DNA from: Geosiphon pyriformis uo1
Lineage: Eukaryota; Fungi; Glomeromycota
Length of the DNA: 64,000 bases
Assembly (NCBI GenBank): GCA_016748015.1
Contig: JAAOMT010000602.1
Coordinates: forward strand, 1,191,696 to 1,255,695
Direction: 5' to 3'
Under the pieces are notes generated by a model. That model saw only the letters and a list, made by a program, of their open reading frames with translations, did not search any database and was not told where the DNA came from. The position numbers and the translations under genes are program-made. Shown piece after piece: positions 2,825 to 44,004 of the stretch (the stretch's first letter is position 1; every line of letters starts with the position of its first letter).

Positions 2825-3455
2825 TGTTATAGTTGAAACTTATACTTCTTATTAATTATTACATATATTAGCCACTGATGTCATATAAATTAGCCACTTT
2901 ATTTTTAGAAAGTGATCATTAATCACTTTTGATAGCTATATAAGTAATGAATCTCTTAGCTGTAAAAAAGCATGTAGAAATCAAAAAAATTAAATAAATA
3001 AAATAACAACTTTCATCTCAATCATTTTCTTATCACTAATTTCTCTTTTCTTACTTTTAAGTATCCAAACATTTTGAGATAAAAGATCACTTGTTGGTTA
3101 TTTCCTATCCTTTTCCTAAAACATATAATTGCAGCATTTGAAGATTATTGAATAAAACGTGACTAAAAAGTAAATCTAATACTTAATATTGAATTCTAAG
3201 AGTGCTAATATAAGGCATAGAATTATATCAGGCATGATTATTTGTTGACAGTATAGACTATCCCTCTACCTTTAGATTTTCCAGTTATCTTTTGAAAAGT
3301 ATAGCAACTGAGATATTTTATAAGACTAATCTTGCACATTGAATCCATACTTATTCAATTTGCTCTTTAAAGTTGAATTCCCTTTGATTATTTTCATCAC
3401 CCTACAATTCTGTTCTTTCTTGTTATCCATTAGTTTGTTACTCCAACCTGTAACA
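2825..3455 (+). repeat. 5' LTR of element 1 (type A)
   Basis: TGTTA...TGTAACA termini, TATA-like CTATATAAG at about 2936, followed by a PBS-like TGG tract. Confidence 0.7.
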
Positions 3456-3461
3456 TAAAAG

Positions 3462-3480
3462 TGGTACTCTTTATGAGATT
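3462..3480 (+). promoter_or_regulatory. Primer binding site of element 1
   Basis: TGGTACTCTTTATGAGATT 6 nt after the LTR end, similar to the PBS at 12061. Confidence 0.65.
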
Positions 3481-3507
3481 GTCAAAATCCACTTTGTTTT
3501 CTATTGT

Positions 3508-6130
3508 ATGGGTGATTATTCATATCTGCCACAACAATCAGAAGAATACTTTAAAGCACACAATAAAAACGATCTAGACTTTATTGAATTCAATCCTTTG
3601 CCCTCCTGCTTGATTTGCTTCTCCATTGAAGAACAATCTAGCAGACAATTCCAAGACTTTTGGAATTGGTTCTTAAACAAGCATTCAGCTGAAATCTACA
3701 CAGCCTATACAACCTATTACTTTGACCAAGCTTATCTTAAAGACAACTTTGAAGAAAAAAACAACAGCATTAATCAACTTTTATACTCAACAACCTTTGA
3801 ACAACAGCCCCCTGATTTTGAATATCTGAATCATCAAATCCACATTTAGATTGCTGCTCATCAATCAACTGAAACTTCTCTTGAAACAGAAGAAGAAAGC
3901 TATCAAACTACTCCCGTTTTTGATCTTTTTTCAAGTAAATCAAAACATTTCACACAAATAGTTACACCTGAACCAATGACTCAAAACCCTCTACAACAAA
4001 ACATTCTGATTGCCCTTCAAGGTATACAGACTGCTTTAGGGCAAAGAAACAACACCCCATTACTATTATTCAGAGGTGATGCCCAAGATCTAATTGAATA
4101 GCTAAATAATTTTAAGAGAGCTGCTACAGCAAATCAATATAATAATAAATACAAGTTCCAAATCATTGGTGGCTACCTTCAAGGCTCTCTTGCTACTTGG
4201 TTTTCACAAAAAACCAATGCCAATACTCAACAAAGAATCATTAGATGGATACCAGCAAATACTGAAGAAAATAACACTTTTTTCACTACCCGGTTTGAAA
4301 CAAAATTTAGAACTCCTATCTTAATATCCAAATAGTACATAGAATTGGAAAAAAAAACCCAAGGCCCAGAAAAAATAGTAACTGAATATGCTAAAGCCAT
4401 TAGAAAACTAATTAAACATGTAGACTCTAATAGAAATTAGACAGAAGAGCAAAAGATTCATTCCTTCACAAAAAGATTAAGAACTAATCTCTCATATGCT
4501 CTTTGGTCTCTCCTGGCCCTGAAAGATAATCTCACAATAGATATGGTCATTGAATTTGCCCAGAGAATAGAAAACAACCAAAAAATGCACTTAGAATCTA
4601 CTCTTTCAGTTTTTGCTTCTGCTTCTGTCATGGTTCCAGCTCCACAAATGGCTGCTACTTTTTTTGCCACTCATACTCAAGATTCCAATGAACAATTAAT
4701 AGACAGACTTACTGCTAACCTTGTTTGGCTATTAGAACCATTAGCCCAAGCAGTCAGAGACAACCAGCAATTCCAAAAACCCAGATTTGAACCTCGTTTT
4801 AATCAGCCCCAACAACCACTATATTAAAGACAACAAAATCATGATTCACCTGTGTGTTATCATTGTGGATTAACTGGACACTTTTCCAGAGACTGTAACA
4901 ATCTTCCATTGCTCCCTCCAGCTTCTAAAAATAATGACACCCAGAATAACAGACTTAACAATAATAATGTTCTCAATCAAAGACTCAATCATGCCAACAT
5001 TAATTTCTTTAAAGAGGATCCCTTAATTGAAGCTATTGTTTATTAGTCTTTAAACTAATAGGCACACTTCCAAAAGATGAGAGTGCAAGCCAACCAGAAG
5101 AAAATCTCTTTTATGTTTTTAATCTAACTGATAATAACCATGATATGGATAAACTAGCAATTAACACCTTTGAATTAACAAGAAAGAAGAAAAAAGCCAA
5201 AGTTAATTTTGTTCTGGACCCAAATAAAGCATCCAAATCAACTGCTAATAACAATGAGCCACCAAAAGCCAAAGTTTTTAAAAAGCTTCCAAAGTTGGAA
5301 CTCTCAGAAATTGTACAAAAATCTGGACCCTATTTTGTTGTTAAAGATTTCATAGAAACTTCAGCTCACATTACATTTGGCCAACTAATAACCCATCCAC
5401 AGTTCAGAAAAGATCTTCGCAAATTCTTAATACTAAAGAAGAAGACATCAAAAACCAACAAACACCCTCGCCAAGCTGGACTTGCTGATAACAACAACAT
5501 CACTCTTCTGATTTGTAAAGCCCAAGTGGCTGGATACTTTATTGATCTGATCTTAAACAGTGGATCATCTGTTAGTGTAATTGCCAAATACTTTCTTGAA
5601 GCAATTGGCAGAAAGATTGATGAGTCTTTTACAAGACCAATGACCAACGTACATAGTAACAAGAAAAAAGGTCTGGGCATAGCCAAAGCTATTTCTGTTC
5701 ACATTAATGGTATTAGCATTGAAACAGATATGGAAGTATTTGAAGCAAAAGAGTATACCATCATTGTTAGTAATGAGTGGCTTAAGAAAGCCAAAGCACT
5801 ACTTGACTATGAACTTTGCGAACTAACTATCAGATATAGTGAAAAACCCATTGTGATTAAATGCTGTCATTGGACAACTTCTCCAGCAACCAAAAAGAAC
5901 CAAGAAAAAGAACAATCAGATGAATCAGATGATGATGAAAGTAACAATGAAAATCAAGAAGAACCAGAAGAAACTGCTAAACTCATCTATATCATCTTTA
6001 CCAGCAATGGCAAGCCATTGGACAATGTTAAAGCTGACAAAAAAAGAATTATGATAAATAGCAAGCTAATCTGCTGGCCTTACTATGATATCCTTAGAAG
6101 AACCTTTGACAAAAAACCTGGCAAGAAAGC
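3508..6130 (+). pseudogene. gag and aspartic protease of element 1
   Basis: Zinc knuckle CYHCGLTGHFSRDC at about 4855. Protease ILNSGSSVSVI (decayed DSG) and IIVSNEWL. Premature stops present. Confidence 0.85.
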
Positions 6131-6800
6131 CAAGTTTTTGGAACATGTAGTGAGCAAAGATGGAATTAAAACAAATCCAGACAAGATTGAAGTAGTTAAG
6201 AACTTTTCAGTACCAACCAACTTGACAGAACTAAGAGCATTTTTAAGTTTTGCAGGCTATTATTGCCATTTTATCAAAGACTTTTCAAAACTGGCTCAGC
6301 CACTTCACCATCTACAGACTAAGAATGTGAAGTATAAATAGACCGAAACTCAACAAGAAGTGTTTAACACATTAAGAAGAAAGCTTATTCAAGCTCCAGT
6401 ATTGATGTATTTAGATCACAGCAAACCATTCATAATTACCACTGATGCATTAGGTCAAGCATTGGGAGCAGTACTATCACAGAAAAAATCAGATGGAAGA
6501 GAACATTCAATAGCTTATGCCAGTAGAAGCTTAAGTCCAGCTGAGAAAAACTATGGAACTCCAGCACTAGAACACTTAGCTATCTATTGGGCTGTCATTA
6601 AATAAAAAGAATACTTGAGTCAAAAGTTTGAAGTATACACTGATCACAAAGGATTGACTTCAATCCAGAAACAAAAATTTGCAGACAATTACTATATCAG
6701 ATGGAAAATAGAACTTTCACCATTTAATTATACAGTATATTATAAAAAGGGAAAAGACAATAAAAATGCTGACAAATTGTCACAAATGAGACAAATTTAA
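6131..6800 (+). pseudogene. RT thumb/connection and RNase H of element 1; RT catalytic core absent
   Basis: KFLEHVVSKDGIKTNPDK, ITTDA, IAYASRSL, VYTDHKGL, NADKLS. Closely similar to 17613-18282. Confidence 0.9.
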
Positions 6801-6829
6801 AACCATTTCAACCAAAAATATAACAAAAA

Positions 6830-8206
6830 ATGAATATACAAAAATACCAACAACTTCAATATTATATAAATACTCAATTGTTTAAGAAGAAATTATCTCA
6901 AAAAGAACAAAGAAACATAAAACAACAATCAAAAAATTTTATCAACCATCAAAATATACTTTACTGAAAAAACAGAAGAAATCCAGATCAACCAATTAGA
7001 GTAATCACAGAACCAGAAAAAGAGACAATATTATTCAACATGCACTCAGACCCAACAGCAGGACATTTTCATAAAGAAGCAACCATGGAAAGAATCAGAA
7101 AGAAATATTATTGGCCATCAATGTATCCAAATATCATCTAATATGTTCAGAATTGTGATGCTTGTCAGAGAAGAGGTAGAACAAGACCAAGTGAACCATT
7201 AAGACCAATCAAAGTAGGACAACCATTCAATCGCATTGGAATTGACTTAGTCGGACCATTAACAATCACCAGCAGAGGCAACAGATATATCACAGTAGCC
7301 ATGAACTATCTCACAAAATGGCCAGAAGCAAAAGCCATTCAAAGAGCAAATGCAGAATCTGTTGCCAAATTCATTCATCAAAATTTGATATGTCAACACG
7401 GATGTTTAAAAGAACTACTATCAGATCAAGGAATTTATTTTGTGAATAAAAAATTAACAGAATTAAGTCAAAGATTTGAGATAAAAAGACCATTATTATC
7501 ACTATATTATCCACAAACAAATGGACTAGTTGAAAGGTTTAACAGAACACTGTGTAAAGCAATCACCAAAATTAGTCAATAAAACTAAGATGAATGAGAT
7601 TTGTTTATACCATCAGTATTATTTGCTTATTGAACAATGAGACAAGATACTACACAAGCAACACCATTTGAATTGGTATATGGTAGGATAGCAACATTAT
7701 CAGTTGAAAGAAAGGTCAGCACATATCCAACAGAACCAATAACAGAAGCTAATTTCCAAGAAATATTGTTGAGAAAAACATATAACCTAATGAAAACACT
7801 AGAAAACAGATAACGAAAAGCAGCTGATAACATTCAAAAGTCTCAAAAAAAGAAAAAAGAATGACACGATAACCAATTACCAGATAAACCAGTTAAATTC
7901 AAGATTGGAGACAAAGTATTTCTACATCATACCAAAGCAGAAAAACAATGGAATGGAAAATTTGATCCCAAATGGAATGGACCATTTCACATAAAAGAAA
8001 TTCTTGAAAATAAAGCTTATAAACTAAGATAGGACAACAAAATCTTAGCCAAAGCAGCACATGGTGATTGACTGAAACCATATCACCAAATAGCATCATT
8101 ATCTACCAATAACATTCCACAATTAGGAGTACAATGAATACTGGTTCAACCAAATGAGATTCTACGAGATCTGGAACCAATCATAATCATTGGATCAAAC
8201 ATGTAA
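6830..8206 (+). pseudogene. Integrase ORF of element 1 (separate frame)
   Basis: Own ATG 29 nt after the RNase H stop. HHCC (MHSDPTAGH...CDAC), IGIDLVGP, LLSDQG, PQTNGLVERFN, WNGPFHI. Confidence 0.9.
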
Positions 8207-8266
8207 AATCAAACAATAAAAGAATATATAAAGACACAGTATATGTGACAAAGACAATCAAGAAAA

Positions 8267-8902
8267 ATAGAAATACCAGATCATATTTACATCATAGCTC
8301 AACAATTATTCCAGGCCTTAAGTCAACAATCTTTAGACATGGAAATTATTGTTAACAACCAAACAATTTGCTATTGAAACACCAAAAGAAAAACAAAGAA
8401 TACATCATATTAGCGGTTACTAAAAAATGATAAAAACTGGTCAAATAACATAATAGAAAAAGTAAAAAACACTTTTGAGAAAATACCTATTATGGCACCA
8501 ACAGAAGAGCTTACAAAAGAGAATTGAAAGCAATAAACAGAACAACTTTTAATATTATACTGTTACTACCAGTTAGGTTGAAAGTTAAATATTCAGGAGT
8601 TGTATATAGACAAATCCAAGAGAATATTCAACCAAGACATAATACAACAAATTGAAGAATTTATTGGAAAGAAAACAAATTCAATACTACATGTTAAAAC
8701 AATATACTGACTACACAACATATTTCAGAACTATCCAGAAATACTGTTATATTCTGAAATAGAAACCATAACCATTAACCAATGGAGAAGAATAAACAAT
8801 ACACAAGTAAAAGACGTGAAAAACAGAGTCAAACAAACAATACTTGAAAAAAAAGTATTAGAATTAATTCAAAACAAAAATTTCAATGGAGCTCAATATT
8901 AA
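8267..8902 (+). pseudogene. Extra 211-aa ORF of unknown function between IN and PPT (element 1)
   Basis: 636 nt in one frame, EIPDHIYIIAQQLFQAL...FNGAQY-stop, interrupted only by point stops. Start codon reads ATA here and ATG in the homolog at 19753. Confidence 0.7.
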
Positions 8903-8915
8903 AAGGAGAAGATAA

Positions 8916-9791
8916 TATTACTCATAAAAAGAAAAACAGATATAGAAAATAGTAGACCAATAAGAAAATAGTATCTAGCATGTGAGCATATTGCTCAGCA
9001 ATGTGGAGCAATATCAGAAATTATGGCACATTGCTCAGCAATATGGAGCAATGTCAGAAAGCATAGTACATTGCTCAAAAATATGGAGCAATGTTAGAAA
9101 ATTAGGGCACATTGTTCAGCAATGTAAGCATTGCTCAAGAAATCATAGCACATTGTTCAAAAATGTGAGCAATCTTGTAGAACATCAATTATGTATATAT
9201 AACAGTAGCATTAGAAGTAAAAAGAGCAGAATCTCTAGTTAGAAATCTTCTATCTACAAATATTAAATAAATAAATTATCTACTATTCAAATCCATTCTT
9301 CACTATCAACACTTCATGTTGATAGTAATTAATACTTAACTATACTGGAACAATAGCTCTTGATCATGGCTATTGACAAGATACTAACTTGTGTATCGCC
9401 TTGGCTCATTTCTTTATTTTCTTTTATTTATTTCTTTTTTTGATTTTTCTTGTTGAATATTAACCAATTAAGAATTAAAGCGCTGAGTAATTAACATCAC
9501 GGATAGCCTGGTAAAAGACCCAGAAATAAGGGTAAAATTAGATATATATTAACAGATAGCTTACCAGAAGGGCATGAATGTCAGAATAAACTGGCCACCA
9601 AGTTGAAGACAGAAATTGGGAACACAACTCACCAACCAACTACATTGTTATTAAATCTCTGTTCATTATACAAAAGACTCCACTTTAAAAACCTTCAAAT
9701 ACAACCAACATGCCAATAACATCAGTATTGTCAAGATATTGAGCACCAAGTTACAGATTTGATTTGAGACCCCAAATAATCATCTGTAACA
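8916..9791 (+). repeat. 3' LTR of element 1 (type B), preceded by PPT AAAAGGAGAAGA
   Basis: T(G>A)TTACTCATA...TGTAACA. About 40-bp tandem U3 repeats at 8983-9172, TATA at about 9195. Homologous to 20394-21139. Confidence 0.85.
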
Positions 9792-10001
9792 CCAGCCATT
9801 ATGCTAAGAAAAAAATTTGATAGAATTGCAATTCTGAAAGGCTATGGAAACAACAATTGAATCTCTGTCTATTATACAAAGATCTCTACAACAAAACCTT
9901 CAGATCAACAAAACTTTCAGATACTAATGCCAAAATATCAATCAAGCACCAAGTTACAGATTTGTTATTTGTTTTGAAACCCCAAATAATCATTTGTAAC
10001 A
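9792..10001 (+). repeat. Second type-B LTR U5 end in tandem (remnant of another LTR)
   Basis: Repeats the CCAGCCA...AAGCACCAAGTTACAGATTTGTTATTTG...TGTAACA U5 terminus. Confidence 0.75.
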
Positions 10002-10179
10002 TTATCCAAAATGTTCAAAAACACATGAACAACAGTAGTATTTTATTGCCATGGACCATTTTTTATTATAGCATGTACTCATTAATGACAATTTTTTGCC
10101 ACAATTAATACAAACTATCTTTGACTGACAATACTGTAAATTAGCATAAGAAATAGTATATAGAATATAAATAGAAATA

Positions 10180-11112
10180 GTTGTTTTAGGTTTTTTTTTG
10201 TTTTTTTTTTCTAGTCTGAAATTGGTGGCAGTTTGTTGTAGTCCTCTTTGGCCCATAATACCTAATACATTTCTTAGGTAGGCTTTTTTTTTTTCTTTAA
10301 ACTTGATTAGTGGTTACTTGTTGATAGTGGTTTTGAAATAATTACAAGTGGCTAGTACTCAAATGTTTTGGCTATTTTGGCTTAGTTGTAATTTCTGGGT
10401 GTTCTAATTAAGCATTATGTTGATTTTAGACAGTCAGTTATTACCAATAAAAGCTTGGTACTAGATGGCTTCTATTACCAATATCTTGATTAGTACCTTA
10501 ATGTTATTGACTTTAAATAAAAAGTTATTGATTTCACTAATTAAAGTTTTTGTTGTTTCATTAGCAGTGATTATTCTTTTGTTGGCAGCTCAATCAACTC
10601 AGTAACTTAATTGGTCCATGAATTATTGTGTGATGATGCTGTCTACTAACTTGCTATCAAAAATAAATTTGATAAGTTGGCTATCAACTTTTATGTTGGT
10701 GTATATTACAGTAATTAGTTTCACTTCCAAAACAGCTCTACTGAATAGAGATGTTTTGACTGTTTCCTTGAGTTCAAAAAAAAAAATGGCAGTAAGTAAT
10801 TTGTTTTTAATGATTGTTGCTAGTGGAATATTGTTGAGAAATAGTTGAAGTTAATTGGGTTTCAATAGATTGGATATGATAATTTCTGAAGATAACAAGA
10901 GACTTAAATAGCATTGGGCATAGTTAATTCTTGAATTTTGCTGTTGAGATCCAAATTACTGGGCTGCTAAACTGAGGATTGATTAGTGTATTACTATTGT
11001 CAATTGCCAATTTTGGTGAATTTAAATAGTTTTCAGTTTTTGGCTTCTATTTTGAGATAAGTTTTACAGCTGACTTTAATTTGATTGGAGCTAATAAATA
11101 ATTTGGGGCTGG
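10180..11112 (-). pseudogene. gag 3' end and protease of a minus-strand Gypsy element (probable continuation of element 3)
   Basis: Reverse complement is homologous to about 14040-14950 (LIFDSKLVDSII, TPI-EI and YQALIGN-like segments). Confidence 0.75.
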
Positions 11113-12058
11113 TATTACTCATAGAATATAGGAATTAAATATTAGTACATAAATTAGCCAATTAGAATAAACATAGTAAAAATGAAATTTCAGGATTCTT
11201 CTTAGAGAAATTGCAGGATTCCAAGAATTTTAGAATTCTCATATAAGGAATTGCAGGATTCCAGAATTCCAGAATTCCTCTTAAAGGAATTGCAGGATTT
11301 CTGAAATTTCAGAATTTCTAGCTAGAGAATTAAAGAATTCAAGGAATTTCATATAATAAAATTTATGTATATATAGTAGTAATATTAGAAGCTAGAAAAA
11401 AAGGCAAGAAGACTTTCAGAGTCAGTAGAACTCTTAGAGTTAATTAGACTTGCAAGTCATAATTATTAGAATTTTTTAGTTAGAGACCTTTTAGTTTAGA
11501 TTTAATTTAAGCGACCTTTTAACTCACAAATATCAATAAATAATTATTTTCTATCTCAAAATTCATTCTCCACTATTAATACTTCATGTTAATAATAATT
11601 GATACTTAACCCTACTGAAACAATAGCTCTTGATCATGGCTATTAATGGGATACTAACTTGCAATTGCTTTTGTTTATTCTTTATTTTCTTTTATTTTTT
11701 TTTATTTTTTTTGTTATTTCTTTGGTTTTACTAAATTGATTAAGGATTAAGCGCTGAGTTACAGACATTATAGGGACTGGTAAAAGACCTGTGAAACAAG
11801 GGTAGAACACTCATAGATTTGAGAATAGCTTACCAGAAGGATTACCAGCCACCACACTGAAAAAGAAATTTGATAAAACTGTGGTTTTGGAAAGCTATGG
11901 ATAAAACCATCAATTAAATTTTTGTCCATTATACAAAAAACTCCACAACAAAATCTTCAGATAAACCATACTTTCAGATATCAACACTAGAATACCAACC
12001 AAGCATTAAGTTACGGATTTGTTATTTGATTTGAGATCCCAAATAATCATCTGTAACA
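11113..12058 (+). repeat. 5' LTR of element 2
   Basis: T(G>A)TTACTCATAG...TGTAACA. U3 built of GAATTGCAGGATTCCAGAATT repeats. R-U5 matches the 3' LTR from about 11490 onward. Confidence 0.88.
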
Positions 12059-12060
12059 TT

Positions 12061-12077
12061 TGGTACTCTCTGTGAGG
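12061..12077 (+). promoter_or_regulatory. Primer binding site of element 2
   Basis: TGGTACTCTCTGTGAGG, 2 nt after the LTR end. A related minus-strand copy reads TGGTGCTCC. Confidence 0.75.
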
Positions 12078-12120
12078 TATAATTCTACAGAGAACTAGCA
12101 CCAACAACAATCATCCAAAA

Positions 12121-15100
12121 ATGGCAGAATCAGAAAACATAAGAACAAACCATTTAGAATTCACAAAATTCTTGTTCCAACAATACAGCCAACAATTAGG
12201 ACTAAACAATAATCACTTCCCAGTAGAATCCGTCTTTAACTTCTACATTAACAATAAAATTACAGACTGCTTAGGAAGAACAGTTAACATTGAATCTGCA
12301 AGGGAAAATTTCTATACAGAATTATTTTAACATACCAGCTTACCAAGAAACTACAGTTTTGTACCAATTATTAGGCAAATAAATCAAACCATTTAAAGGT
12401 ATACACAACAACAATTCCCAATTATCTATGCAGACAAAAGAAAGGGAAGACTATAAACACCAGCAGTGACACCAAAACAAATACAACTACTTATTTGGAA
12501 GAAAACCAGAGTTAAATCACCAACAAATCTATCATACCATTACACCCCAGGAAGTGCCATCAACATCTCATCAATAGGTGTGTCCACATCACATGCAACA
12601 TTGACATTTGGATGACTACTATTTCAAAGTAAACAAAAGAAAGCAGAATTACTAGGAACTTATGGCAATTATTTTGAAGAATTTAAATTATGATTGCCAA
12701 TGCTATTAGAATTCTGATCACTGTTACCTTAACCAGATTTTGGAAACATGAATCCCTGGAAGATAATGGAATCAGAAGAGAGAGAAGAAGAAAAAGAATC
12801 TAAAGATCAAAAATTTACTTACCAAAACCCAATTACTGAAAATCTGGAAGTTGAAACTCTGAATTTTTAAATGCAGCACAATTAGGACAATTGAAACCCT
12901 AAAACAATTAATCAGCAAAACTTACCTCTAATAATTGTTATTGATCAACCACCAATTGAACCAATTATTGAACTGATTCAACAGCAATCACTTCAACCAC
13001 CTTAACAATCACAACAGCCATTTCAACTGCCACAACAACAAATTGTAGCACCAATAGCATATGCTCCTATCGCTAAACTTAAAAAATTTACCGGCAAAGA
13101 GGACAATGCCCAAGTGTGACTAAATGATATGGAAAAAGCCATTACAGCCAACAGTTGAAATGACATCAGAGCCATGCAGGCCATTGCCTATTTTCTTCAG
13201 AATACTGTCAATTTATGGTATCAAAGCTTGGCTAACAAATTCCAGGATTTTAATGCATTCAAGCTTGCATTCCTACAATACTTCAGCAATAATAATAGTA
13301 TTAATCAGCTAACAAACACTTTCACCACTATTAAACAAGGGAAAAATAAAGCAGTTACTACTTATTTAGAACACTTCTATAGAAATTTGCACCAAATTCA
13401 AGCAATCCAGGCTGACTATTTTACAGCACCACAAATTCTGAACTGATTTATTAGAGGTCTGGACAGTAATATCCTCCAACACATATGTCCAATGCATCCA
13501 ACAGACTTTCAAGCCACAGTTACTAATGCCAGAGATTTTGAGGCAGCTGAACTCGAAGCTAACCATGTCCAAGCTGTAAATTTAGTGATAAATAGATCAT
13601 CTAAATTGGATTTCAAATTGAAACAATTCAGTGATTTTATTAACCAGAAGCTTGAAAAGTACTTAGCTAACAATTGCACAATTTATCAATCTCCACAACA
13701 ATGCTATATTCAAGAAAACGCAAATTATTTCCAGAATCAGTCGTGTTCATCCTCCTTAACCAATCAACAGTAGCAGCAGAAAATGTGTGTTTGTCACTAC
13801 TGTGGTAAACAAGAACATTTAAAGATTGACTGTAGGTCAAGAATAGATAACCAATGATTAGGAAATCAATATCAAAATCCTAATCACCAGTTCCCAATTC
13901 CAAGTTACCAACACAACCCAGCACTATATCAACTGACTTATCTGCCAATAACGTAACAACTAATATATCAACCATCTATATATCAACCTCCAATTTATCA
14001 ATGGCAAACACTAATAATATATCAACCATTGTAGCCACAAATAATTTATCAGACACCTATAGTTCAAATACTGCCATCAAATCCAGCTCAAATAACATCA
14101 GAAAACCCTAGATTAAAAATCACCCAAAACTGAAGATCAGCAATAGTTGTTTACCAACTGATTCCCAGTTTATCCAACCAGCCATCCAGATTATGACAGC
14201 GGAGTTCAGAAACTGGGTATACTCAAAACCCAAGTTCCCAGAACTATTTAAGTCTCCTGGTTACTCCAGAAAATGCCCAAACCAATAATCCAAAAACCAA
14301 TTAACAAGCAATACTTACCAGCAATATTCCACCAGCTACTATTAATGAGAACAAATCACTGGATGCTATTTTTCCATTTGAACTTGAAGAACTTTCAGCC
14401 ACGCCATTATTTAGTAAAGCCACTCTTAAAGAAAAACCTATTACTATTATGTACACTGATGCCAAAGTTAATGGCCACTTAATCAAACTAATCTTAGACA
14501 GTAGATCAGTGGGCAGCATCATTACAAGACAACTCATGGCCCAATTAGATTGCCAAGTTGATCAAACTGCCAGCACATGAATCATCACAGCTGATGGAGC
14601 AACCAAAACTCCAATTGGTGAGATTGATAACTTCCCTATAGAAGTCAATGGCATCATTATGCCAATCAAAGTATTAATTATGGAAGCCATTCAATATCAA
14701 GCACTTATTGGCAATGACTGGCTGTCCAAAACCAACATGACACTTGATTAAAACACGCAAGAGCTCCAACTCAGCCAGAATGGTTAACACACACAGATAC
14801 CAGCCATGTGTGGCCATTTTAAAACCACCAACATGCCAGTACCTCTTATCAAGTTTGAGAAAGAAGAGAAGAAACCTACCTAAGAAGCCTATCAAGTGTT
14901 TTGGGCTGATGAAGACCACAATGAGTTGCTGCCAATACTCTCTTAGAACAACAACAATAAAAAAAAGCAGAAAAAAGAACTTACCTGAAATCCCGATTAA
15001 GCCTGGAAAACTAACAACGACCAGAAAAAACTAATAAATTGGGAGTAGAAAGAAAATAAAAAAGAAAAAGGAAAAAGAAAGAAAGAAGAACCAAAACCTG

Positions 15101-18100
15101 ACAGCACCACCACTTATAATTTCTATACTACACCCCAACAATTCACTTATTGCTGCCCAAAACTGGTATGCGTCGATTGTGGCAAAAAATTGTCATCAAT
15201 GGGCACTTGTTGTGGTGACAATTAGGAATATATTTCGGCAACCAAATTCTATTGCCATCCATATGTTATTGAACATTTTGGAAGACCAAAACAAGTTGAA
15301 AAATGGGACAATGAACCATGCTTAACTTGTAGAGAAACTTTCCTAAATGAAAGAATGTGGAATGACATTCCTGGACAAGGAGGAACATGCGATGAAATAT
15401 GCCAGTATACAATCCTAATCAACAACTGAGTATGCAAGAGCACACCAATCAATGATGCTTGGAAATGAGCATTGTGACAATTGGAAAGATATCTCCACAA
15501 CAAACATGAACTTTGGAGAATAAGGTATGCAAAAGCAGAAGGCATGACAACCAGCAAACTCCTAAAAATCAAAAACAATTCTCTATCTCTTCCTGAACCT
15601 AAATATGTTCAAACCTTTGATGTCTTTGGCAATATTGAAGATAACCCAAAAAAATTTCATGAATATTATCAGCATTTAGCACCCATTAGAGAAGAACAGA
15701 AGTAGTGTTTAGAGCAGTTGAACACTCAATTATATCAATATTGCTTAATCCTATGCAATTTTCAATATTGTAATGAGTGTGATTTTATTTACAATCCACC
15801 ACCACACATGATCTACATGATTCCAGAAGAAGATGAACCAATCAGCAGCTGTGCATCAGAATCAGAATCAACTTTCAATCCCAATTTAAACTCTGACAAT
15901 AACGATGATGAAAACAATGATTCCAGCTCCACTCAGTATGACAATGAAACTAACAATGATTTAAACTTCGATTCAAACCCCAAAACATATATTGCACTTT
16001 CTAACTTCACCAAAAAACAGAAACTTAAATGGTTCAGCAATAATAGTAAAGGTATCATGCCAGAATGCACACATAATACTGATACAGAGTTTGATCTGAG
16101 ATATCCGAGAAAAGATTTCATCAAATTGGAACTACATTTGCACACTTGCATTGATCTGAAAATAGCACTGGAAATTCCAGCAACAATAATGATTCAACTA
16201 GCATCCAAGAGTAGTTTAATAAAAAAGGGGATCAACATTAGAGGAAAAATAATTGATGCAAAATACATAGGAAATATCATTGCTATGCTACAAAATAATT
16301 CAGAAAAAACATATATCATAGATTTAAATGAAAAGATAGCACAGACAATATTCCTACCTCTGGTGAAAATAGCTCAGTTAGTGTCAGTGGGAAACAGAGA
16401 AGAATTAGGGATCACAGCTAGAGGAATACAAGAATTTAAATCAACAGGTAGAATAGATATACCAGTTAATATGACAGAAGAAAAAGTTATTGACAAAAGA
16501 GAAATTATCTCAAACTGTCAATCAATTTCTATTCCATCATATGACCAGTATATGTTACCCATAAAAAAAAAAGTAAAAAATCAAGCTCAGTTGTTTGAAG
16601 CAGAAGCAACCATTTGCGAATCAGGAGAGATTGGACTCATTAATCTCTTCATATCAGCCAAAAGCCCCAAAAACATCAAAATTCTCATATACAACACAAT
16701 GGAAAGTGTCATTGAAATACCAAAGTGAACTATCATTGGATATTTAACTACTGAAGTTGAGGATCAACCACCAAATCACATTCCAGATTTTCCACAGCTT
16801 TGTGGATATGTGGACATTACATCACAAATCATCTATGAACGAAATAAATGTTATTTGCTACAACCAGATTAATTGGAACAGATAAACATGAGAAATTTAG
16901 ACCCACTCTAACAGATGCAACTAAAGATATTACTCAGCAATTTCAATGACATCTTTGCTAATGAAAATGAATTTGGCCGCACCAACATCATCCAGCATCA
17001 AATCAAGACTAAAGATGCAATGCCAATTAAACAAAGAGCATACAGAGTACCACCAGCTAGCCATGAGATCATTTGTCAAGAAATTAACTGAATGCTTGAC
17101 AATGGGCTAATTCAGCCATCAATGAGTCTATGGTCATTACCAGTGGTACTGGTCTGTAAGAAAAATGGGAAAATCCGTTTTTATGTAGACTACTAAAAAC
17201 TGAATAGAGTAACAAAAAGTGATAGCTATCCAACTCCAAAAATCCAAGAACTATTCAATGCTTTTGGAGGAAATAAATAGTTTTCAACACTAGATTTAGA
17301 TAGTGATTACTGGCAAGTAGCCATGAATCCAGCTGACAAAGAAAAAACAGTGTTTACCACAAAAGAAGGAAATTTTGAGTTTGAAGTCATGCCATTTGGC
17401 TTGATAAATGCTCCAGCAACATTTTAATGGCTCATGGAAATTGTCTATACTGGATTATTATGGAAATCAGTAGTCGTATACTTGGATAATACCAATGTGT
17501 TCTCAAAAACATTTGATGATCATCTGCATCATTTTTAATAAGTGTTCAAAAGATTAAGAAGAGCAGAATTAAAACTAAATGCAACTAAATATTTCTTTGG
17601 AAAAACTGAATTCAAGTTTTTGGGACATGTAGTGAGCAAAGATGGAATCAAAACAAATCCAGACAAGATTGAAGTAGTTAAGAACTTTTCAATACCAACC
17701 AACTTGACAGAACTAAGAGCATTTTTAGGTTTTGCAGGCTATTATTGCCATTTTATCAAAGACTTTTCAAAACTGGCTCAGCCACTTCACCATTTACAGA
17801 CCAAAAATGTGAAGTATAAATGAACCAAAGCTCAACAAGAAGCATTTGACACATTAAGAAGAAAGCTTATCCAAGCTCCAGTATTGATGTATTCAGATCA
17901 CAGCAAACCATTTATAATCACTACTGATGCATCAGATTAAGTATTGGGAGCAGTACTATTACAGAAAAAATCAGATAGAAGAGAACATCCAGTAGCTTAT
18001 GCCAGTAAAAGCTTAAGTCCAGCTAAGAAAAACTATGAAACTTCAGCACTAGAACACTTAGCTATCTATTGGGCTGTCATCAAATAGAAGGAATACTTGG

Positions 18101-18282
18101 GTCAAAAGTTTGAAGTATACACTGATCACAAAGGATTGACTTCAATCCAGAAACAAAAATTTGCAGACAATCGCCATGTCAGATAGAAAATAGAACTTTC
18201 ACTATTTAATTATACAATATATTATAAAAAGGGAAAAGACAATAAAAATGCTGACGAACTGTCACAAATAAGACAAATCTAA
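12121..18282 (+). pseudogene. gag-pol single frame: Gag, CCHC, protease, Cys-rich domain, dUTPase, RT, RNase H
   Basis: ORF pieces at 12121, 13174, 13492, 15481, 15718 and 17542 share one frame. CHYCGKQEHLKIDC at about 13790, LILDS at about 14490, [11 protein letters not shown] and YLDN (decayed YLDD, about 17480), RH ITTDAS...NADELS. Confidence 0.92.
16030..16449 (+). pseudogene. dUTPase domain inside pol
   Basis: All five trimeric dUTPase motifs, decayed but in order: TEFDL, SKSSL, KIIDAKYIG, EKIAQ, ARGIQEFKSTG. Confidence 0.9.
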
Positions 18283-18311
18283 AACCATTTCAACCAAAAA
18301 TATAACAAAAG

Positions 18312-19694
18312 ATGAATATACAAAAATACCAACAACTTTAATATTATATAAATACTCAATTGTTTAAGGAGAAATTATCTCTAAAAGAACAAAGGAACAT
18401 AAAACAACAATCAAAAAATTTTATCAACCATCAAAATATACTTTACCGGAAGAACAGAAGAAATTCAGATCAACCAACTAGAGTAATCACAGAACCAGAG
18501 AAAGAGACAATATTATTCAACATGCACTCAGACCCAACAGCAAGACATTTTCATAAAGAAGTGACCATAGAAAAAATCAGAAAGAGATATTATTGGCTAT
18601 CAATATATCCAGATATTATCTAATATATTTAAAATTGTGATGCTTATCAAAGAAGAAGAGGAACAAAACCCAGTGAATCATTAAGACCAATCAAAGTGAA
18701 ACAACTATTCGATTGTATTGGAATTGACTTAGTCAGACCATTAATAATCACCAGCAGAGACAACAGATATATTGTAGTAGCCATGGACTATCTCACTAAA
18801 TGGCCAGAAACAAAAGCCATTCAAAGAGCAGATGCAGAATCCATTGCCAAATTTGTTCATCAAAATCTGATCTGTCAACATGGATGTCCAAAAAAATTAT
18901 TATCAGATCAAAGAACTCACTTTGTGAATAGAACATTAGCAGAATTAAGCCAAAGATTTGGAATAAAAAGACCACTACTATTACCATACCATCCACAAAC
19001 AAATGGGTTAGTTGAAAGATTCAACAGAACACTGTGTAAAGTAATAGCCAAAATTAGCCAAAAAAACCAGGATAAATGGAATTTGTTTATACCATTAGTA
19101 TAATTTGCTTATCGAACAATAAAGCAAGATACCACACAAGCAACACCATTTGAATTGGTATATAGTAGAACAGCAACATTACCAGTTGAGATAGAGGTCA
19201 ATACATATTTAACTAAACCAATAACAGAAGATAATTTCCAAGAAACATTGTTGAGAAGAACATATAACTTAATAGAAACACTAGAAAACAGATGACAAAA
19301 AGCAGCTGATAACATCCAAAAGTCACAAGAAAAGCAAAAAAAATGACACAATAACCAACTACCAAATAAACCAGTTGAATTCAAGATTGGAGACAAAATA
19401 CTATTACATCATACCAAAGTGGAAAAACAATGGAGTGAAAAATTCAACTCTAAATAAGACGGACCATTTCACATAGAAGAAATTCTTGGAAATGGAGCTT
19501 ATAAATTAAGATGGAACAACAAAATCTTAGCCAAAGCAGCACATAAGAATTGACTGAAACCATATTACCAGATAGCATTATCATCCACTAATAACATTTT
19601 ACAACTGGGAGTACAAAGAATACTAGTTCAACCAAATAAGATTCCACAAGATCTGGAACCAATCATAGTTATTGAACCAAGCACGTCAAATTAA
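18312..19694 (+). pseudogene. Integrase ORF of element 2 (separate frame, no recognisable chromodomain)
   Basis: ATG 29 nt after the RH stop. MHSDPTARH, IGIDLV, LLSDQ, YHPQTNGLVERFN, DGPFHI. Confidence 0.9.
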
Positions 19695-19752
19695 ACAACT
19701 AAAAGAGTATATAAAAACACAGTACATGTGACAAAAGCAACCAAGAAAAAAA

Positions 19753-20378
19753 ATGGAAATACCAGATTATATTCACACTATAGCTCAACAATTGTTTTAG
19801 GCCTTAAGTGAACAACAGTTAGACAGAAAAATTGTTATTAACAACCAAATAATTTGCTATTAAAACACCCAAAGAAAGACAAAGAATACACTATACCAGC
19901 AGCCACCAAAGAATGATAAAAACTGAACAGAGAACTTAATAGAAAAAGTGTTGGGAAAATACTTATTATGGCACCAACAGAAGAGCTTACAAAAGAAAAT
20001 TGGAAGCAATGAACAGAACAACTTCTAATATCATATTGTTACTACTGGTTAGGTCAAAAGTTGAATATTTAGGAATTGTATATTAACAAATCTAAGAGAA
20101 TATTCAACCAAAACATAATACAACAAATTGAAGAATTTATTGAAAAGAAAACAAATTTAACACTACATGTTAAAACAATGTACCAACTATACAACATATT
20201 TCAGAACTATCCAAAAATATTGTTACACACTGACATGGAAATTATAACTATTAACCAATAGGGAAAAATAAACAAAACACAAGTAGAAGACATAAGAAAC
20301 AGAGTTGAACAAACAATACTTAAAAAAGAAGTATTAAAATTAATTCAAAACAAAGATTTCGATGGAGCTCAATATTAA
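19753..20378 (+). pseudogene. Extra ORF of element 2 (10-nt deletion relative to 8267-8902)
   Basis: MEIPDYIHTIAQQLF...FDGAQY-stop, abutting the PPT. TATATAAA at about 19708. Confidence 0.7.
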
Positions 20379-20393
20379 AAAAGGAGGAAATAA

Positions 20394-21139
20394 TGCTACT
20401 TATAAAAAAAAAAACAGATATAGAAAAATAGTAGACCAATAGGAGAGTAGTAGTTAGCATGTGAGCACATTGCTTGAGAAATTATAGCACATTGCTCAAA
20501 AATGTAAGCAATCTCATAAAACCCAAATTATGTATATATAGTAGGAGCATTAGAAGTAGAAAAAACAGACCTCTTAGTTTAGATTTGATTTAAGCAACCT
20601 TCCAATTCACAAATATCAATAAATAATTATTCACTATCTCAATCCACTTCTCACTATAAACATTTTATGTTGATAATAATTGATACTTAACCATGCTGAA
20701 ACAATAGCTCTTGATTATGGCTATTGATGGGATACTAACTTGTAATTGCTTTTATTTATTCTTTATTTTTTTTTATTTTTTTTTATTTCTTTTGTTATTT
20801 CTTTGGTTTTACTAAATTGATTAAGGATTAAGTGCTAAGTTACAGACATCATAAGGACTGGTAAAAGACCCATGAAACAAGAGTAGAACACTCATAGATT
20901 TGAGGATAACTTACCAGGAGGATTACCGGCCATCACGCTGAGAAAGAAATTTGATGAAACTGTGGTTTTGAGAAGCTACAGATAAAACCATCAATTAAAT
21001 CTCTGTCCATTATACAAAAAACTCCACAACAAAATCTTCAAATAAACCACACCTTTAGATATCAACACCAGAATACCAACCAAGCACCAAATTATGGATT
21101 TGTTATTTGATTTAAGACCCCAAATAATTATCTGTAACA
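20394..21139 (+). repeat. 3' LTR of element 2
   Basis: TGCTACTT...TGTAACA after the PPT. U3 is of the GCACATTGCT type. Confidence 0.9.
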
Positions 21140-23399
21140 ATGCTACTGTATAAACAACAGATAAACTGGTTTAAAATCTGTGGCACTATAAAGTAATTTG
21201 TATCAATTGCTTGTATTTGGTGCAGATTTCTATAGAAACATTCTAGATACATGATAATGACTTCAGTTTTTTCTTGTTTGATGGTAGTGAAAACAGTTGT
21301 AAGACAATTAATGCTGTTATTATTACTAAAGTATCTCAAAAATTCAGTTTTGAAATTATTAAAATTTTGAGGCTTTTGGATCAAGCTTTAATATTATGAG
21401 TTGATAGTATCCTAAAGAAAATATAAGATGGTTTGGAGAGCTTTAGTATTATCTTAATTATTGGTGGTAATAATTTTTGCAACATTATTTAACCAAATTT
21501 GAGTGTTGTTTTCTTTACCATTGAATTTTTCTAATTTGGTAATTAGTGCATATGCCATTGGTAACAGTTGTTGTGATGGTTGTAGTTGAAGTAATTGTTG
21601 TGACTGTTGTTGTTGTTCAGCAATCAGAACAACTGGTAATAGATTAATTATGATTATTGGAGATAAGTTTTGAAGAACAATAGGAGCTGGATTTGAATTA
21701 TTTGGGTTTTGCTGAGTTAAAACAATCAGAGTTTAAATTCCTGGGTTTTTTAAGATCAGATTTTGATAATTAAATTCTTGATTTTTGTTTTTCTTTTTCT
21801 CAGAGTTGGTTATTTTTTAAAGACTAGTGGTTCTGAAATTGAGTTAAGATGACAATAATCGAAATCTTGATAATGTTAGTAATTACAATTTAAATTTTTT
21901 GAAGTAATTATCATAAGTTCTTAATAAGTCAGCTTTTTTTTGTTGGCTTTGAAATATGATTCTTGCTAATGGTGTTTTTGCAGTTAATATGGATACACCT
22001 GCTAATATTATGTTAATAATATTTTCTTGTATATGATTATATGATGAGTAAATAAATAAAACTATTTTTGATTTTTTCTAAGTAAGTAGTTATATGTTTT
22101 TTGGTATTCCTGCTGGTATTTGTAATTTTTTTTTGTTGTTGTTTGCAAAGATAATAGGAAATTTCTGTTTGGTGTGTTTCTTAATTTTTCTATTAATTTC
22201 TATAATTATTGGAGTGAACAATTAATTTTGTAAAAGCATGATGTTCTGAAGTAATTTACTATAAAAATTGGTGAGTGCTGCTTCTGGATCTTTTTGGTCT
22301 TCTAGATAAAATTTAATCTTTTTATTAATGTAGAAGTTAAAAGTTGATTTTGCTGGCAAATAGTTATTTGTTAATCCTAAGTAAGTTTGATAGTATCAGA
22401 ATAAAGCTTTCACAAATCCCAAGTAGTTTGTCTCTAATTTTTCTGATTTTGCCATTGTTTTAAATAGTTGTTGTTGGTACTGGTTTTTTGCTGAATTATA
22501 TCTCACAAGAAACATCAAATATTACAGGTGATTATTTAGGATGTTAATACAAATAACAAACCTGTAACTTGGTACTTAATAAATAATATGGTTGGTAATA
22601 TCTAAAGATTTTGGTTGAATCTTTTGTATAATAGACAGAGATTTAATATTAATATCCTGTTGTAATGTTTTTAGTTTTTTTCTTGACTTTTAAGTTGGTA
22701 TGTATTATTATCCATAGCTTTTTGGAATATTTTATTTTATCAATTTTTTTTTTAACTTAATGGCCTGTTTTCTGATAAGCTATTTCTTAATTCTAAGTGT
22801 CTGTTTTTATTCCTGGGTTTTTAATCAGTTTTTTCCTTAATGTTAGTATTTTGCACTTTAATCTTTTTAATCAGTTAGTAAATCAATAAAACAAAATAAA
22901 AATAAAAAATAAAAAAAAATAAAAAAATAAAAAAAAAGAAGAAATTAGTATCTTGTCAATAACTATAATCAAGAGCTATTGTTTTAGTATGATTAAGTGT
23001 TAAATCTTATTAACATAAAGTGTTAATAAAACAGAGATAATTAATATTTTTTAATCAAACAATAATAACATAGATTTAAGTAATAATTAATAATTTATTA
23101 ATATGTTATATAGATGTTGAACTGCTTTTAATTGTGTTTTTTTTAACCAGAAATTCTAGCTGTGTGTTTTTTTTTTCTGTTTCTAATACTCTTGCTATAT
23201 ATACATAATTGATGTTTTATAAAATCTTATATATTCATGAGCAATATGCTATAATTTTTTAAGCAATGCTTATATTGCTAAGCAATATGCCATAATTTAC
23301 TAGCAATGTACTTATATACTCAATATTATTCTTTTATTAGTCTATTTTTCTTATTTGTTTTTTCTACTATTTCTCTTATACTTTTTTCTATAAGTAACA
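21140..23399 (-). mobile_element. Element 3: type-B LTR (23399-22520), PBS and 5' gag, interrupted by element 2
   Basis: Reverse complement TGTTACTTATAG...TGTAATA then TTTGATGTTTCTTGTGAG. gag MAKSEKLETNYLGFVK and FLRYFSNNNSIN. Confidence 0.85.
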
Positions 23400-25167
23400 A
23401 CAGTTTACTGAAATTGGTAGCTAATTAATTTCAAAAATATTAGTTGAGTTTTGGGAATTTTAAGTATAATAATTAAAGATTTGGGTTTTTGAATATTTAA
23501 TTTTTATTTAATTTTGTAAAGACATATAAGAAATAATTGATTTTAGTTAATATATCTAAGGTAAAATAAGATACATTTTCTTAAAAAGAGAAGTTCTTCT
23601 TTTATACAACTTGTTATAGTATTAGTTTATAAATTTGAACTTTTTTTTTTGCTATGATTTTAATAAATTAAAGATACATTTTAGCAAACTACAAGTTATT
23701 TTAATAAACTATTAACTATTTTGGTGAATTTATTTATTATTTTAACAAATTTTTACAAATTTCAGCAAATTCTTAAATATTAAGTGGTTTAGAGTATTAT
23801 GTAATTTGATTATCTTAATTTCTATGATATAAATCAAGTTATTAATTAAATAGTAATATTTAATAATTTGATTAAATAATAAGTAGTAATTTGAAACAAT
23901 ATTAATATATGTTAATTAATAATAGGAATTATAAGAGTAGTTTTATGCTAATTAATAGTTAAAATTTTACTAGTAACAGTGACTTTTAAATTTTCTTAAT
24001 TTCCCAAGTGGAATTTAATTTTTTTGTTGATATAGAAATTAAAAGCTGATTCTGCTGGCCAATAATTACTTGTTAGTCTAAGATAAATTTATTAGTATTA
24101 AAATAAAAATTTTGCAAATCTTAAATAATTTTCTTCTATAATTTTTTGATCTGCCACTTTTCCAAATAATTGATGTTGGTACTGGTTTTTTGTTGAATTA
24201 TATTTTATAAGGAGCACCAAATATTATAAATAATTATTTAGAGTATTAAAACAAATAACAAATTTGTAACTTAGTGCTAAAGAGTTAATAATGTTAATAA
24301 TATCTGAAGATTTTAGAGTCTAAAGATTTTGAAGTTTGAAGGTTTTGGAGTCTAAAGGTTTTGGTTAAGTTTTTTGTATAATGGATAAAGATTTAATTGA
24401 TGGTTTCTTCTATGAATTTTTTTCTTCAATATAATGGCTGGTTTATTCTAATAGTTGTGCTTTTTTAGTAAGCTATTCTTAAATTTCTATCCTTATTTCT
24501 GGGTCTTTTACCAGATTATTCTTGACATCAAATATTTAGTACTTAATTTTTTTAATTAATTAGTAAACAACAAGAAAACAAACAAAAGAAAATAAAAAAA
24601 TAAAAAAAAATAAAAAATTAGTACTCTATTAATAAACATAATCAAAAGCTATTGGTTTAATGTAATTAAATATTAAATTCTATTTACATGAAATATTAAT
24701 AAAGTGAAAGTGATTAATATTTTTAATTAAGTAATAATAATATAGATTCAAGTAATAATTAATATTTTATTGATATGTGATTTAATTTTACTTCAAGTTA
24801 TAGAAAACTACTTTTTAAAAAGAGAGATATTGAGTAATTAATAGGTTCTAACTAATTGTTGGTATCAATTCTGTTTTTTTTGTTTTTAATGTTTTCACTA
24901 TATATATATTTTTTTTATTATATAAGATCTCTCATTTTCTTGAATAATGTGTCTTATTTTCTCTAACAATATGCTCATTGTTAAGCAGTATGTTATAATT
25001 TTCTAACAATGTGCTTATTACTAAACAGTATGCTATAATTTATTAACAATATACATATTGTTAAGCAATATGTCATAATTTACTAATATTATGCTTATTT
25101 GTTAAGTACTATTCTTTTATTGGTCTATTTTTTTTACTTTTTTTTTTGTACTTTTCTATAAGTAACA
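23400..25167 (-). mobile_element. Element 4: more decayed type-B LTR (25167-24222), PBS and gag start, interrupted by element 3
   Basis: Reverse complement TGTTACTTATAG start, PBS TGGTGCTCC, gag-like PAESAFNFYIN at about 24025-24060. Confidence 0.8.
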
Positions 25168-25199
25168 TTATACATTTAAATATCTTTATAACAATAATG

Positions 25200-43710: not shown

Positions 43711-44004
43711 TTTCGTTTTTATTGGAAACAATACTATTTAACATTGAGGAATAGCTCCCCGGATTTATTTAGTCACTACTTTCTGAATTTACTTGAAAAA
43801 ATAAAAATACTGTTATGCAACTTGGAAAATCAGCTGATATGTTTCATGGCTTTTGACAACCGCTCCCACATTCTGGGATAAAGACTGGAAATCTACTCTA
43901 TATAAATTTCAGTCTCAATCGCTAACTTTTTGGATCATATATTGGTAGGATTGACACCAGGGTGGTTATTTTACACAACTCTATTAAGAATTAGAATAAT
44001 TTAG

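Follow-up and report, generated by a model that had tools for sequence, protein, structure and literature searches.

In retroelements that carry long terminal repeats (LTRs), integrase (IN) is normally packaged as part of Gag-Pol, and in the Ty3/Gypsy group its usual place is the C-terminal part of Pol. Here we analyze a Ty3/Gypsy element of the fungus Geosiphon pyriformis uo1, located at positions 11113-21139 (+ strand) of a 64,000-nt stretch of contig JAAOMT010000602.1 (assembly GCA_016748015.1, positions 1,191,696 to 1,255,695; hereafter the window), which encodes its integrase as a separate gene followed by a third open reading frame (ORF3). LTR elements account for 41.2% of the G. pyriformis genome (PMC11952901). 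Among the closest described systems, a dUTPase between protease (PR) and reverse transcriptase (RT) is already on record for Postia PosPlaTy3-5, planarian Burro and rotifer elements (PMC2864245, PMC6431247, PMC5408684), and integrases with a YPYY motif are reported from Athila/Tat, Cer1, Gypsy-1-I_RO and DGLT-A1, as well as from Ginger1 DNA transposons (Bao et al. 2010, PMC2836005). Within the literature covered, which included the accessible text of PMC6839031, PMC3248453, PMC8647823, PMC13465315 and bioRxiv 10.64898/2026.05.21.726589 and lay outside Repbase, Dfam, GyDB and subscription papers, we found no description of a separately encoded integrase in LTR retrotransposons. Likewise, no account of the structure of Gypsy elements in arbuscular mycorrhizal (AM) fungi was found in the text covered, which lay outside the element tables of PMC2864245 and the transposable-element library of PMC11952901. 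What appears to be new here is a Ty3/Gypsy clade with a free integrase and a conserved ORF3, the position of the dUTPase being already known. Such a clade needs another way to express, dose and package its integrase.

Layout of the element and its Pol-integrase junction

The features of the element are as follows (RH, RNase H).

11113-21139 (+): Ty3/Gypsy element, whole; deamination-decayed LTR retrotransposon copy
11113-12058 (+): 5' LTR; initial TG decayed to TA, terminal TGTAACA, ~39-nt tandem repeats in U3
12061-12078 (+): primer-binding-site (PBS)-like TGG motif; same type in copy A after 3455
12076-18282 (+): Gag-PR-Cys-dUTPase-RT-RH frame; 47 decay stops, no frameshift, TAA at 18280-82
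13063-13542 (+): capsid (Ty3_capsid / Retrotrans_gag), Pfam scan
13792-13833 (+): CCHC zinc knuckle; weak match (E 0.08), motif visible
14440-14748 (+): aspartic protease, Pfam scan
15133-15795 (+): Cys-rich insert; several CxxC pairs, aligns with sister models
16054-16446 (+): trimeric-type dUTPase; Pfam E 2e-13, motifs decayed in this copy
17158-17631 (+): reverse transcriptase core; YxDD site reads YLDN
17824-18273 (+): Ty3-type RNase H; single copy, directly after RT, then stop
18283-18311 (+): A-rich spacer of 29 nt from Pol stop to integrase ATG; integrase-frame stop at 18303-05
18312-19694 (+): stand-alone integrase; YPYY-type N-terminus, H2C2, DDE core (rve), GPF/SH3
19753-20378 (+): ORF3, ~210 aa, predicted soluble; indel-split in this copy, in frame in copy A
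20377-20390 (+): polypurine tract (PPT), motif
20394-21139 (+): 3' LTR; TG...CA ends, U3 repeat type unlike the 5' LTR

Domains from Gag to RNase H were read from the translation of 12076-18330, with stops as X, scanned with Pfam. An earlier reading made from the letters alone (the sequence-only reading) had proposed a single Gag-PR-Cys-dUTPase-RT-RH frame, a separate integrase ORF and an accessory ORF, and all three are borne out. The long frame contains no frameshift and is not open, holding 47 stops in 2068 codons; the two remaining frames hold 128 and 177. The integrase occupies a different frame from ATG 18312, and the accessory ORF, ORF3, is larger than it looks in this copy.

The split is constant in this family. 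Copy A, a related copy in the window, and the studied element (copy B) align ungapped over 2086 nt spanning the Pol-integrase junction, and copy A retains the Pol stop, the second stop in the integrase frame and the integrase ATG. Family-wide evidence comes from Geosiphon gene models, 13 of which were the close named protein matches among the best 120, and from contigs of one sequencing run (X1), in which 97,616 contigs match the element and cover all 30 bins (X2 and X3 yielded four and one, respectively). Across 18235-18345, 762 X1 contigs contain no indel and four substitutions at the 5% level, none of which touches either stop or the integrase ATG. A private lesion of this copy is thus rejected as the origin of the split, and the alignments indicate that the split integrase is genuine in this family.

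The affiliation with Ty3/Gypsy is supported by LTRs with TG...CA ends (the 5' TG decayed), PBS and PPT, by the domain order PR-RT-RH-IN with an RVT_1-type RT, and by Ty3 Gag-Pol as the best PDB match of the integrase profile (E 2e-47). The integrase N-terminus carries a Y-P-F-Y pattern just upstream of H2C2, the YPYY motif being assigned from the description in PMC2836005 and not from its alignment. Chromovirus identity was rejected, with no chromodomain match after the integrase in the element (Pfam) or in the precomputed domains of the best 120 integrase matches. A degenerate tether with a second RNase H is also absent, the one Ty3-type RNase H being followed by the stop. No tRNA gene lies within the window. 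An ATG at 12121 is found in this copy alone (G makes up ~98% of aligned contig depth there). Because of this, and because the Gag frame extends upstream across the PBS into the LTR (window 11850-12120), translation of Gag may begin within the LTR or at a codon other than AUG.

Distribution of the split layout

Metagenome loci were found via core peptides, which give split forms no advantage, and 80 of 512 were kept; 28 of these, lacking RNase H upstream, were left out of junction counts. In all 52 loci with RNase H upstream, a stop precedes the integrase ATG, and these loci form 44, 35 and 25 clusters at 90, 80 and 70% identity. The sequence-only reading had asked whether relatives show the same architecture; they share the split but not the dUTPase, found in none of 24 PR-RT linkers of relatives. 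Terminal direct repeats in 7 of 14 long metagenome loci and PBS motifs in several indicate that these relatives are LTR elements. The integrase of locus L007 is 84% identical to one of Rhizophagus irregularis, and that of L064 80% to another; stand-alone integrases in Rhizophagus are annotated as isolated DDE genes, and R. irregularis contains members that look intact. Viral contigs yielded only three weak, unrelated integrase loci.

Protein searches gave a similar picture. The best 120 of 1450 integrase matches, from a length-limited search, are stand-alone proteins, 118 of them beginning with Met, and in 104 this Met lies 49-61 residues from the anchor (56 in the studied element). Longer proteins were searched separately, and among the best 120 of 915 four AM-fungal gene models fuse RT/RH or Gag to a clade-type integrase. 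These look like predicted-intron joins, because each lacks part of the integrase N-terminus.

The split could be only apparent, reflecting a decay lesion or a programmed frameshift or readthrough that yields the usual Pol-IN fusion. This copy is heavily mutated, relatives do recode between PR and RT (TGA-CTA at 8 of 10 stops, AAATTTT in L043 and L048), and 20 of 54 junctions (the 52 loci plus the two window copies) have some frame overlap. However, the other 34 leave no overlap where a frameshift could join the frames, all three Pol-to-IN frame relations occur (0, +1 and +2 in 11, 18 and 25 junctions), the Met and its Kozak context are conserved, and the studied family has a second, invariant integrase-frame stop 9 nt before the ATG. 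Junction counts and the 762-contig alignment largely refute this explanation, which we regard as very improbable.

Phylogeny of integrase and RT-RH

Sampling was limited to search matches: rows for IQ-TREE were hand-picked (40 and 42), 108 fused matches were thinned to 56 at 52% identity, and most Cordylochernes rows were thinned out. The labels Athila/Tat and Ginger1-like on tree rows were derived from host and domain content. In the IQ-TREE analysis of 40 integrases, the split group (100/99) contains the studied element together with Rhizophagus and Cetraspora proteins, and its sister (98/97) is a set of six fused integrases (P0059, P0306, P0324 and three plant rows), while six Ginger1-like proteins fall outside this pair, within the same 98/89 group. 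FastTree on 101 integrase rows agrees with this split grouping. In the concatenated tree, the studied element joins the split loci at 0.96, with the fused P0059 nearest. The sequence-only reading had called for an RT/RH/IN phylogeny, which succeeded for integrase; RT-RH alone gave no resolution. The RT-RH trees do not resolve a single clade, which counts against it: FastTree placed 33 split rows and P0059 together (0.98) with the long-branched studied element outside, and the IQ-TREE analysis was without resolution, a one-clade tree not being rejected (p-AU 0.57). An Athila/Tat-labelled plant row stands apart in this last tree, and the integrase sister group holds plant rows.

These comparisons indicate that the traits defining the lineage are the stand-alone integrase and ORF3, common to Rhizophagus and Cetraspora proteins and to soil-metagenome elements. 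The suggestion that the combined layout defines a poorly described fungal lineage therefore stands as regards a real lineage, and fails as regards its hallmark, which is free integrase plus ORF3 and not the dUTPase or Cys insert.

The integrase might also be a captured Ginger1-type DNA transposase that brought its own start codon, or the lineage might be the source of Ginger1. Ginger1 transposases open with the same YPYY-H2C2-DDE-GPY/F block (PMC2836005), and the starts of the six Ginger1-like animal proteins lie in this register, with the proteins belonging to the same 98/89 group. However, the split clade is sister to fused Gypsy integrases with the Ginger1-like proteins outside, and a fused element is nearest in the concatenated tree, which makes this origin improbable. 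If the free integrase is real, Ginger1 DNA transposons could arise from an intermediate of this type, a free YPYY integrase gene. A fungal survey took the rve domain as a Ginger transposon marker (PMC5751038), and may include some split-clade integrases.

Start context, junction hairpin and integrase expression

An A at -3 is present in 61 of 73 integrase starts, compared with 148 of 487 ATGs at internal sites; for G at +4, Asp/Glu in position 2 is a confounder. Short junctions (≤35 nt) make up 20 of the 52, with five junctions whose spacer length is inflated by early Pol-tail stops classed as long, and seven ATGA and two TAATG overlaps occur among the junctions. Such overlaps are reinitiation signatures in fungal victoriviruses and hypoviruses and in SART1 (PMC10275272, PMC5972666), and by analogy the short junctions and overlaps suggest termination-reinitiation.

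An RNA hairpin of ~42 nt with an invariant 11-12-nt internal loop (for example, L016:4464-4503) ends 0-15 nt before the integrase ATG in 21 of 32 long junctions and in none of the 20 short ones. The hairpin model detected 40 sites, every one at an integrase start. Across 31 aligned motifs, double changes occur in 8 of 12 pairs and 97.8% of cells are paired, the structure being derived from the same alignment as this covariation test; none of 500 shuffles scored as high, and slid controls gave 21-48%. No Rfam match was obtained in 10 loci at the gathering score or on one junction at E 10, and the viral contigs contained no hairpin match. Small and covarying, the hairpin is a candidate eukaryotic translation-initiation element of a new kind.

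The three-gene layout, its conservation in family and clade, the selected start context and the covarying hairpin are direct observations. As to how the integrase is made, we lean towards the genomic RNA as template, with either reinitiation or hairpin-aided entry. Ribosomes translating Gag-Pol would stop at the Pol end and restart at the next AUG of the same genomic RNA, releasing free integrase. In short-junction members, including the studied family with its 29-nt spacer, the terminating 40S subunit would reinitiate directly, while the hairpin of long-spacer members likely serves to hold or recruit the ribosome. The free integrase would then enter the particle via non-covalent binding, outside the polyprotein, and ORF3 would, speculatively, be the likeliest helper for this entry.

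Several observations weigh against this account. No upstream structure or TURBS-like motif (termination upstream ribosome-binding site) was seen at the element's junction, and the 29-nt gap lies at the upper limit reported for TURBS-type reinitiation in the accessible text of PMC10275272. Eleven of the 32 long junctions lack the hairpin, three of them with spacers of 206-506 nt, and the association of hairpin and long spacer is confounded by common descent. In addition, the four fused AM-fungal models may reflect real splicing. The hairpin model has no match within the 64-kb window, the studied element included.

Alternatively, integrase and ORF3 could be translated from their own subgenomic mRNA, arising through splicing or starting at a promoter inside the AT-rich spacer, with the hairpin as a 5' untranslated region or processing element. 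The strong Kozak-like context fits ordinary scanning initiation, spacers of 62-506 nt are often AT-rich, four gene models join upstream parts to integrase, and ORF3s of rotifer LTR elements are described as products of spliced messages (PMC5408684). However, no conserved AG acceptor occurs within 60 nt upstream of 70 starts, two of the 31 aligned loci have CGG in place of a CAG inside the hairpin and carry a compensating change, and the exact ATGA/TAATG overlaps (9 of 52 junctions) require no separate transcript. We consider a subgenomic message unlikely, yet a serious competitor to reinitiation or hairpin-aided entry.

Conservation and predicted fold of ORF3

An ORF of at least 100 aa starts near the integrase end in 28 of 41 loci with 600 nt downstream, and most belong to one family. 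The predicted structure of this family is confident, all-helical and soluble (pLDDT 96), and Foldseek against PDB and BFVD gave no match at E 0.001 (best VIA Z 4.8), a result that demonstrates neither a new nor a different fold. No Pfam family occurs in more than one of 23 ORF3 members, and Atlas feature matches, with fewer than 150 of 256 features shared, were not used. None of 25 ORF3 proteins reaches hydropathy 1.6 over 19 residues, as would an env-like transmembrane ORF. For the ORF3 of the studied element, 50 representatives were obtained at E 0.001, and in several the initial Met falls at the 19753 position. Homology of this ORF3 to the lineage-wide helical ORF3 appears likely, their profiles matching over two conserved motifs (hhalign E 0.0011); weighing against it, the match is modest, at a probability of 21%, and two earlier tests were non-significant (E 0.55 and E 0.27). 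A role of ORF3 as a packaging or translation helper is a guess. The full proposal, namely an unnamed tricistronic LTR clade of mycorrhizal fungi with a freed integrase, a new ~42-nt ribosome-delivering RNA, a new-fold ORF3 that loads the integrase and the status of a Ginger1-type intermediate, is put forward tentatively and is, taken together, doubtful.

dUTPase, Cys-rich insert and other modules

The extra domains are not insertions private to this copy: the dUTPase segment aligned in 10 of 13 Geosiphon gene models and at least half of the Cys insert in 8 of 13. All five dUTPase motifs are recoverable across sister copies, and PDB matches of the dUTPase include many groups within a few bits of each other. 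The enzyme likely lowers uracil incorporation during reverse transcription. Since relatives' linkers lack dUTPase and carry other modules instead, the clade is modular and the combined layout is the form it takes in one family, with dUTPase and Cys insert appearing as family-level add-ons. The dUTPase seems to be an interchangeable module, a Nudix hydrolase domain (L013:~450-810, E 1e-13) lying at its site between protease and RT; this Nudix is possibly a second solution for nucleotide-pool cleaning.

The Cys insert, likely zinc-binding judging from its CxxC pairs, has no match in Pfam or to the Cys-rich tails or inserts of relatives, gave no Atlas result, and its AlphaFold model is unusable (pLDDT 47). 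Other Cys-rich regions occur in the clade. A ~550-aa insert after the protease in L043:6580-8143 and L048:1240-2817 contains repeated CCHC knuckles and further Cys clusters, and is unrelated to the element's insert by phmmer. A 179-405-aa tail follows RNase H in L007:4940-5716 and 17 other loci, with a conserved terminal Cys/His domain in 17 of 18 that has no Pfam match. The hairpin subgroup has a Cys/His tail after RNase H, which is unlike the element's Cys insert. After the dUTPase, sister copies conserve window 16490-16750, a segment with a weak match to the PR-RT linker of the fused relative P0059 (E 0.004) and possibly a degenerate second dUTPase-like fold. In the PR-RT linkers of relatives, the in-frame TGA-CTA, a readthrough-type context, was found in L005, L033, L039, L062, L067, L068, L073 and L074 among the 10 stops examined; L043 and L048 have the AAATTTT heptamer and a frame change instead.

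Decay, recombination and neighbouring sequences

For 39 of the stops a residue is aligned in sister gene models, and at 25 of these the models mostly read Q, R or W, the pattern predicted by C>T/G>A decay. Transitions account for 52 of 55 LTR-core differences, and CpG is depleted in the element (observed/expected 0.14, versus 0.90 in host genes), indicating that this copy is dead through deamination-type decay. The two LTRs align only over their last ~575 nt (89.8% identity), their U3 parts are unrelated with different repeats, the flanks, where a target-site duplication would lie, differ (CTGG at 5' versus ATGC at 3'), and ~180-215 codons are missing between the two sides of the older element flanking the insertion. 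Given the unrelated U3, the mismatched flanks and the codons lost from the interrupted element, this copy probably arose by recombination between two subfamily members. An X1 contig crosses from the ORF3/PPT end (20388) to an 11113-type U3, which places both halves in one family.

At least four related copies or remnants had been counted in the window, and this count holds. The main ones are listed here.

6131-9790 (+): copy A, 3' half; RT end, RH, split junction with ATG 6830, IN, ORF3, LTR
10005-11112 (-): older related element, PR to Cys part, hosting the nested copy
21140-23308 (-): older related element, LTR-gag part

Copy A is 87-89% identical to the element. Its 5' half (window 3449-6130), which meets the 3' half at 6131, belongs to another gag-PR family whose PBS is of the same type; with most of RT missing, copy A may be a chimera or a nested deletion. 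LTR/gag remnants of related families lie at 23984-25171 and 9791-10003. Elsewhere in the window, 34634-35287 (-) holds an ORF in a low-GC repeat region, and 29963-33934 holds two identical 1976-nt copies with 20 N between them, probably an assembly artefact at the gap. Host genes at 156-893, 38862-40673, 42665-43741 and 56326-57171 encode a choline kinase, a Ran-binding protein and Slu7 (by Pfam scan) and a response-regulator-like ORF (by eye); CpG is not depleted in the two host-gene regions measured.

Comparison with known systems

The retrovirus-like complexity proposed by the sequence-only reading was overstated. The likeness to retroviruses is superficial, with no env, only one RNase H, of the Ty3 type, and an integrase grouping with those of fused Gypsy elements. 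Gypsy elements with a dUTPase (Postia PosPlaTy3-5, Tuber Tmt1, Phanerochaete, Burro and rotifer Juno/Vesta/TelKA) share its presence in Pol, whereas the text covered on these elements mentions no separate integrase or Cys insert.

The YPYY integrase group shares Y-P-F-Y, H2C2, DDE and GPF and forms one supported tree group with the element; its Gypsy members (P0059 and plant matches) are fused to Pol, whereas the element's integrase is free. Ginger1 resembles the element in having a YPYY, H2C2, DDE and GPY/F block with its own start codon. It is described, however, with terminal inverted repeats, no RT and C-terminal protease domains (Ulp1/OTU), whereas split elements have RT-RH upstream, LTR repeats and an integrase ending after SH3, on which grounds identity with a Ginger element was rejected.

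Victoriviruses (HvV190S), hypovirus CHV1, caliciviruses (TURBS), SART1 and LINE-1 ORF2 share a stop/start overlap or short spacer and RNA structure at the junction. The retrotransposons named among termination-reinitiation systems in the accessible text of the reviews (PMC10275272, PMC5972666) are all non-LTR, whereas the split clade consists of LTR elements; its hairpin, without an Rfam match, sits between stop and start. With canonical Ty3/Gypsy elements such as Ty3, the element shares LTRs, PBS, PPT and the order PR-RT-RH-IN, but its integrase lies outside the polyprotein with its own ATG and is followed by a conserved non-env ORF3.

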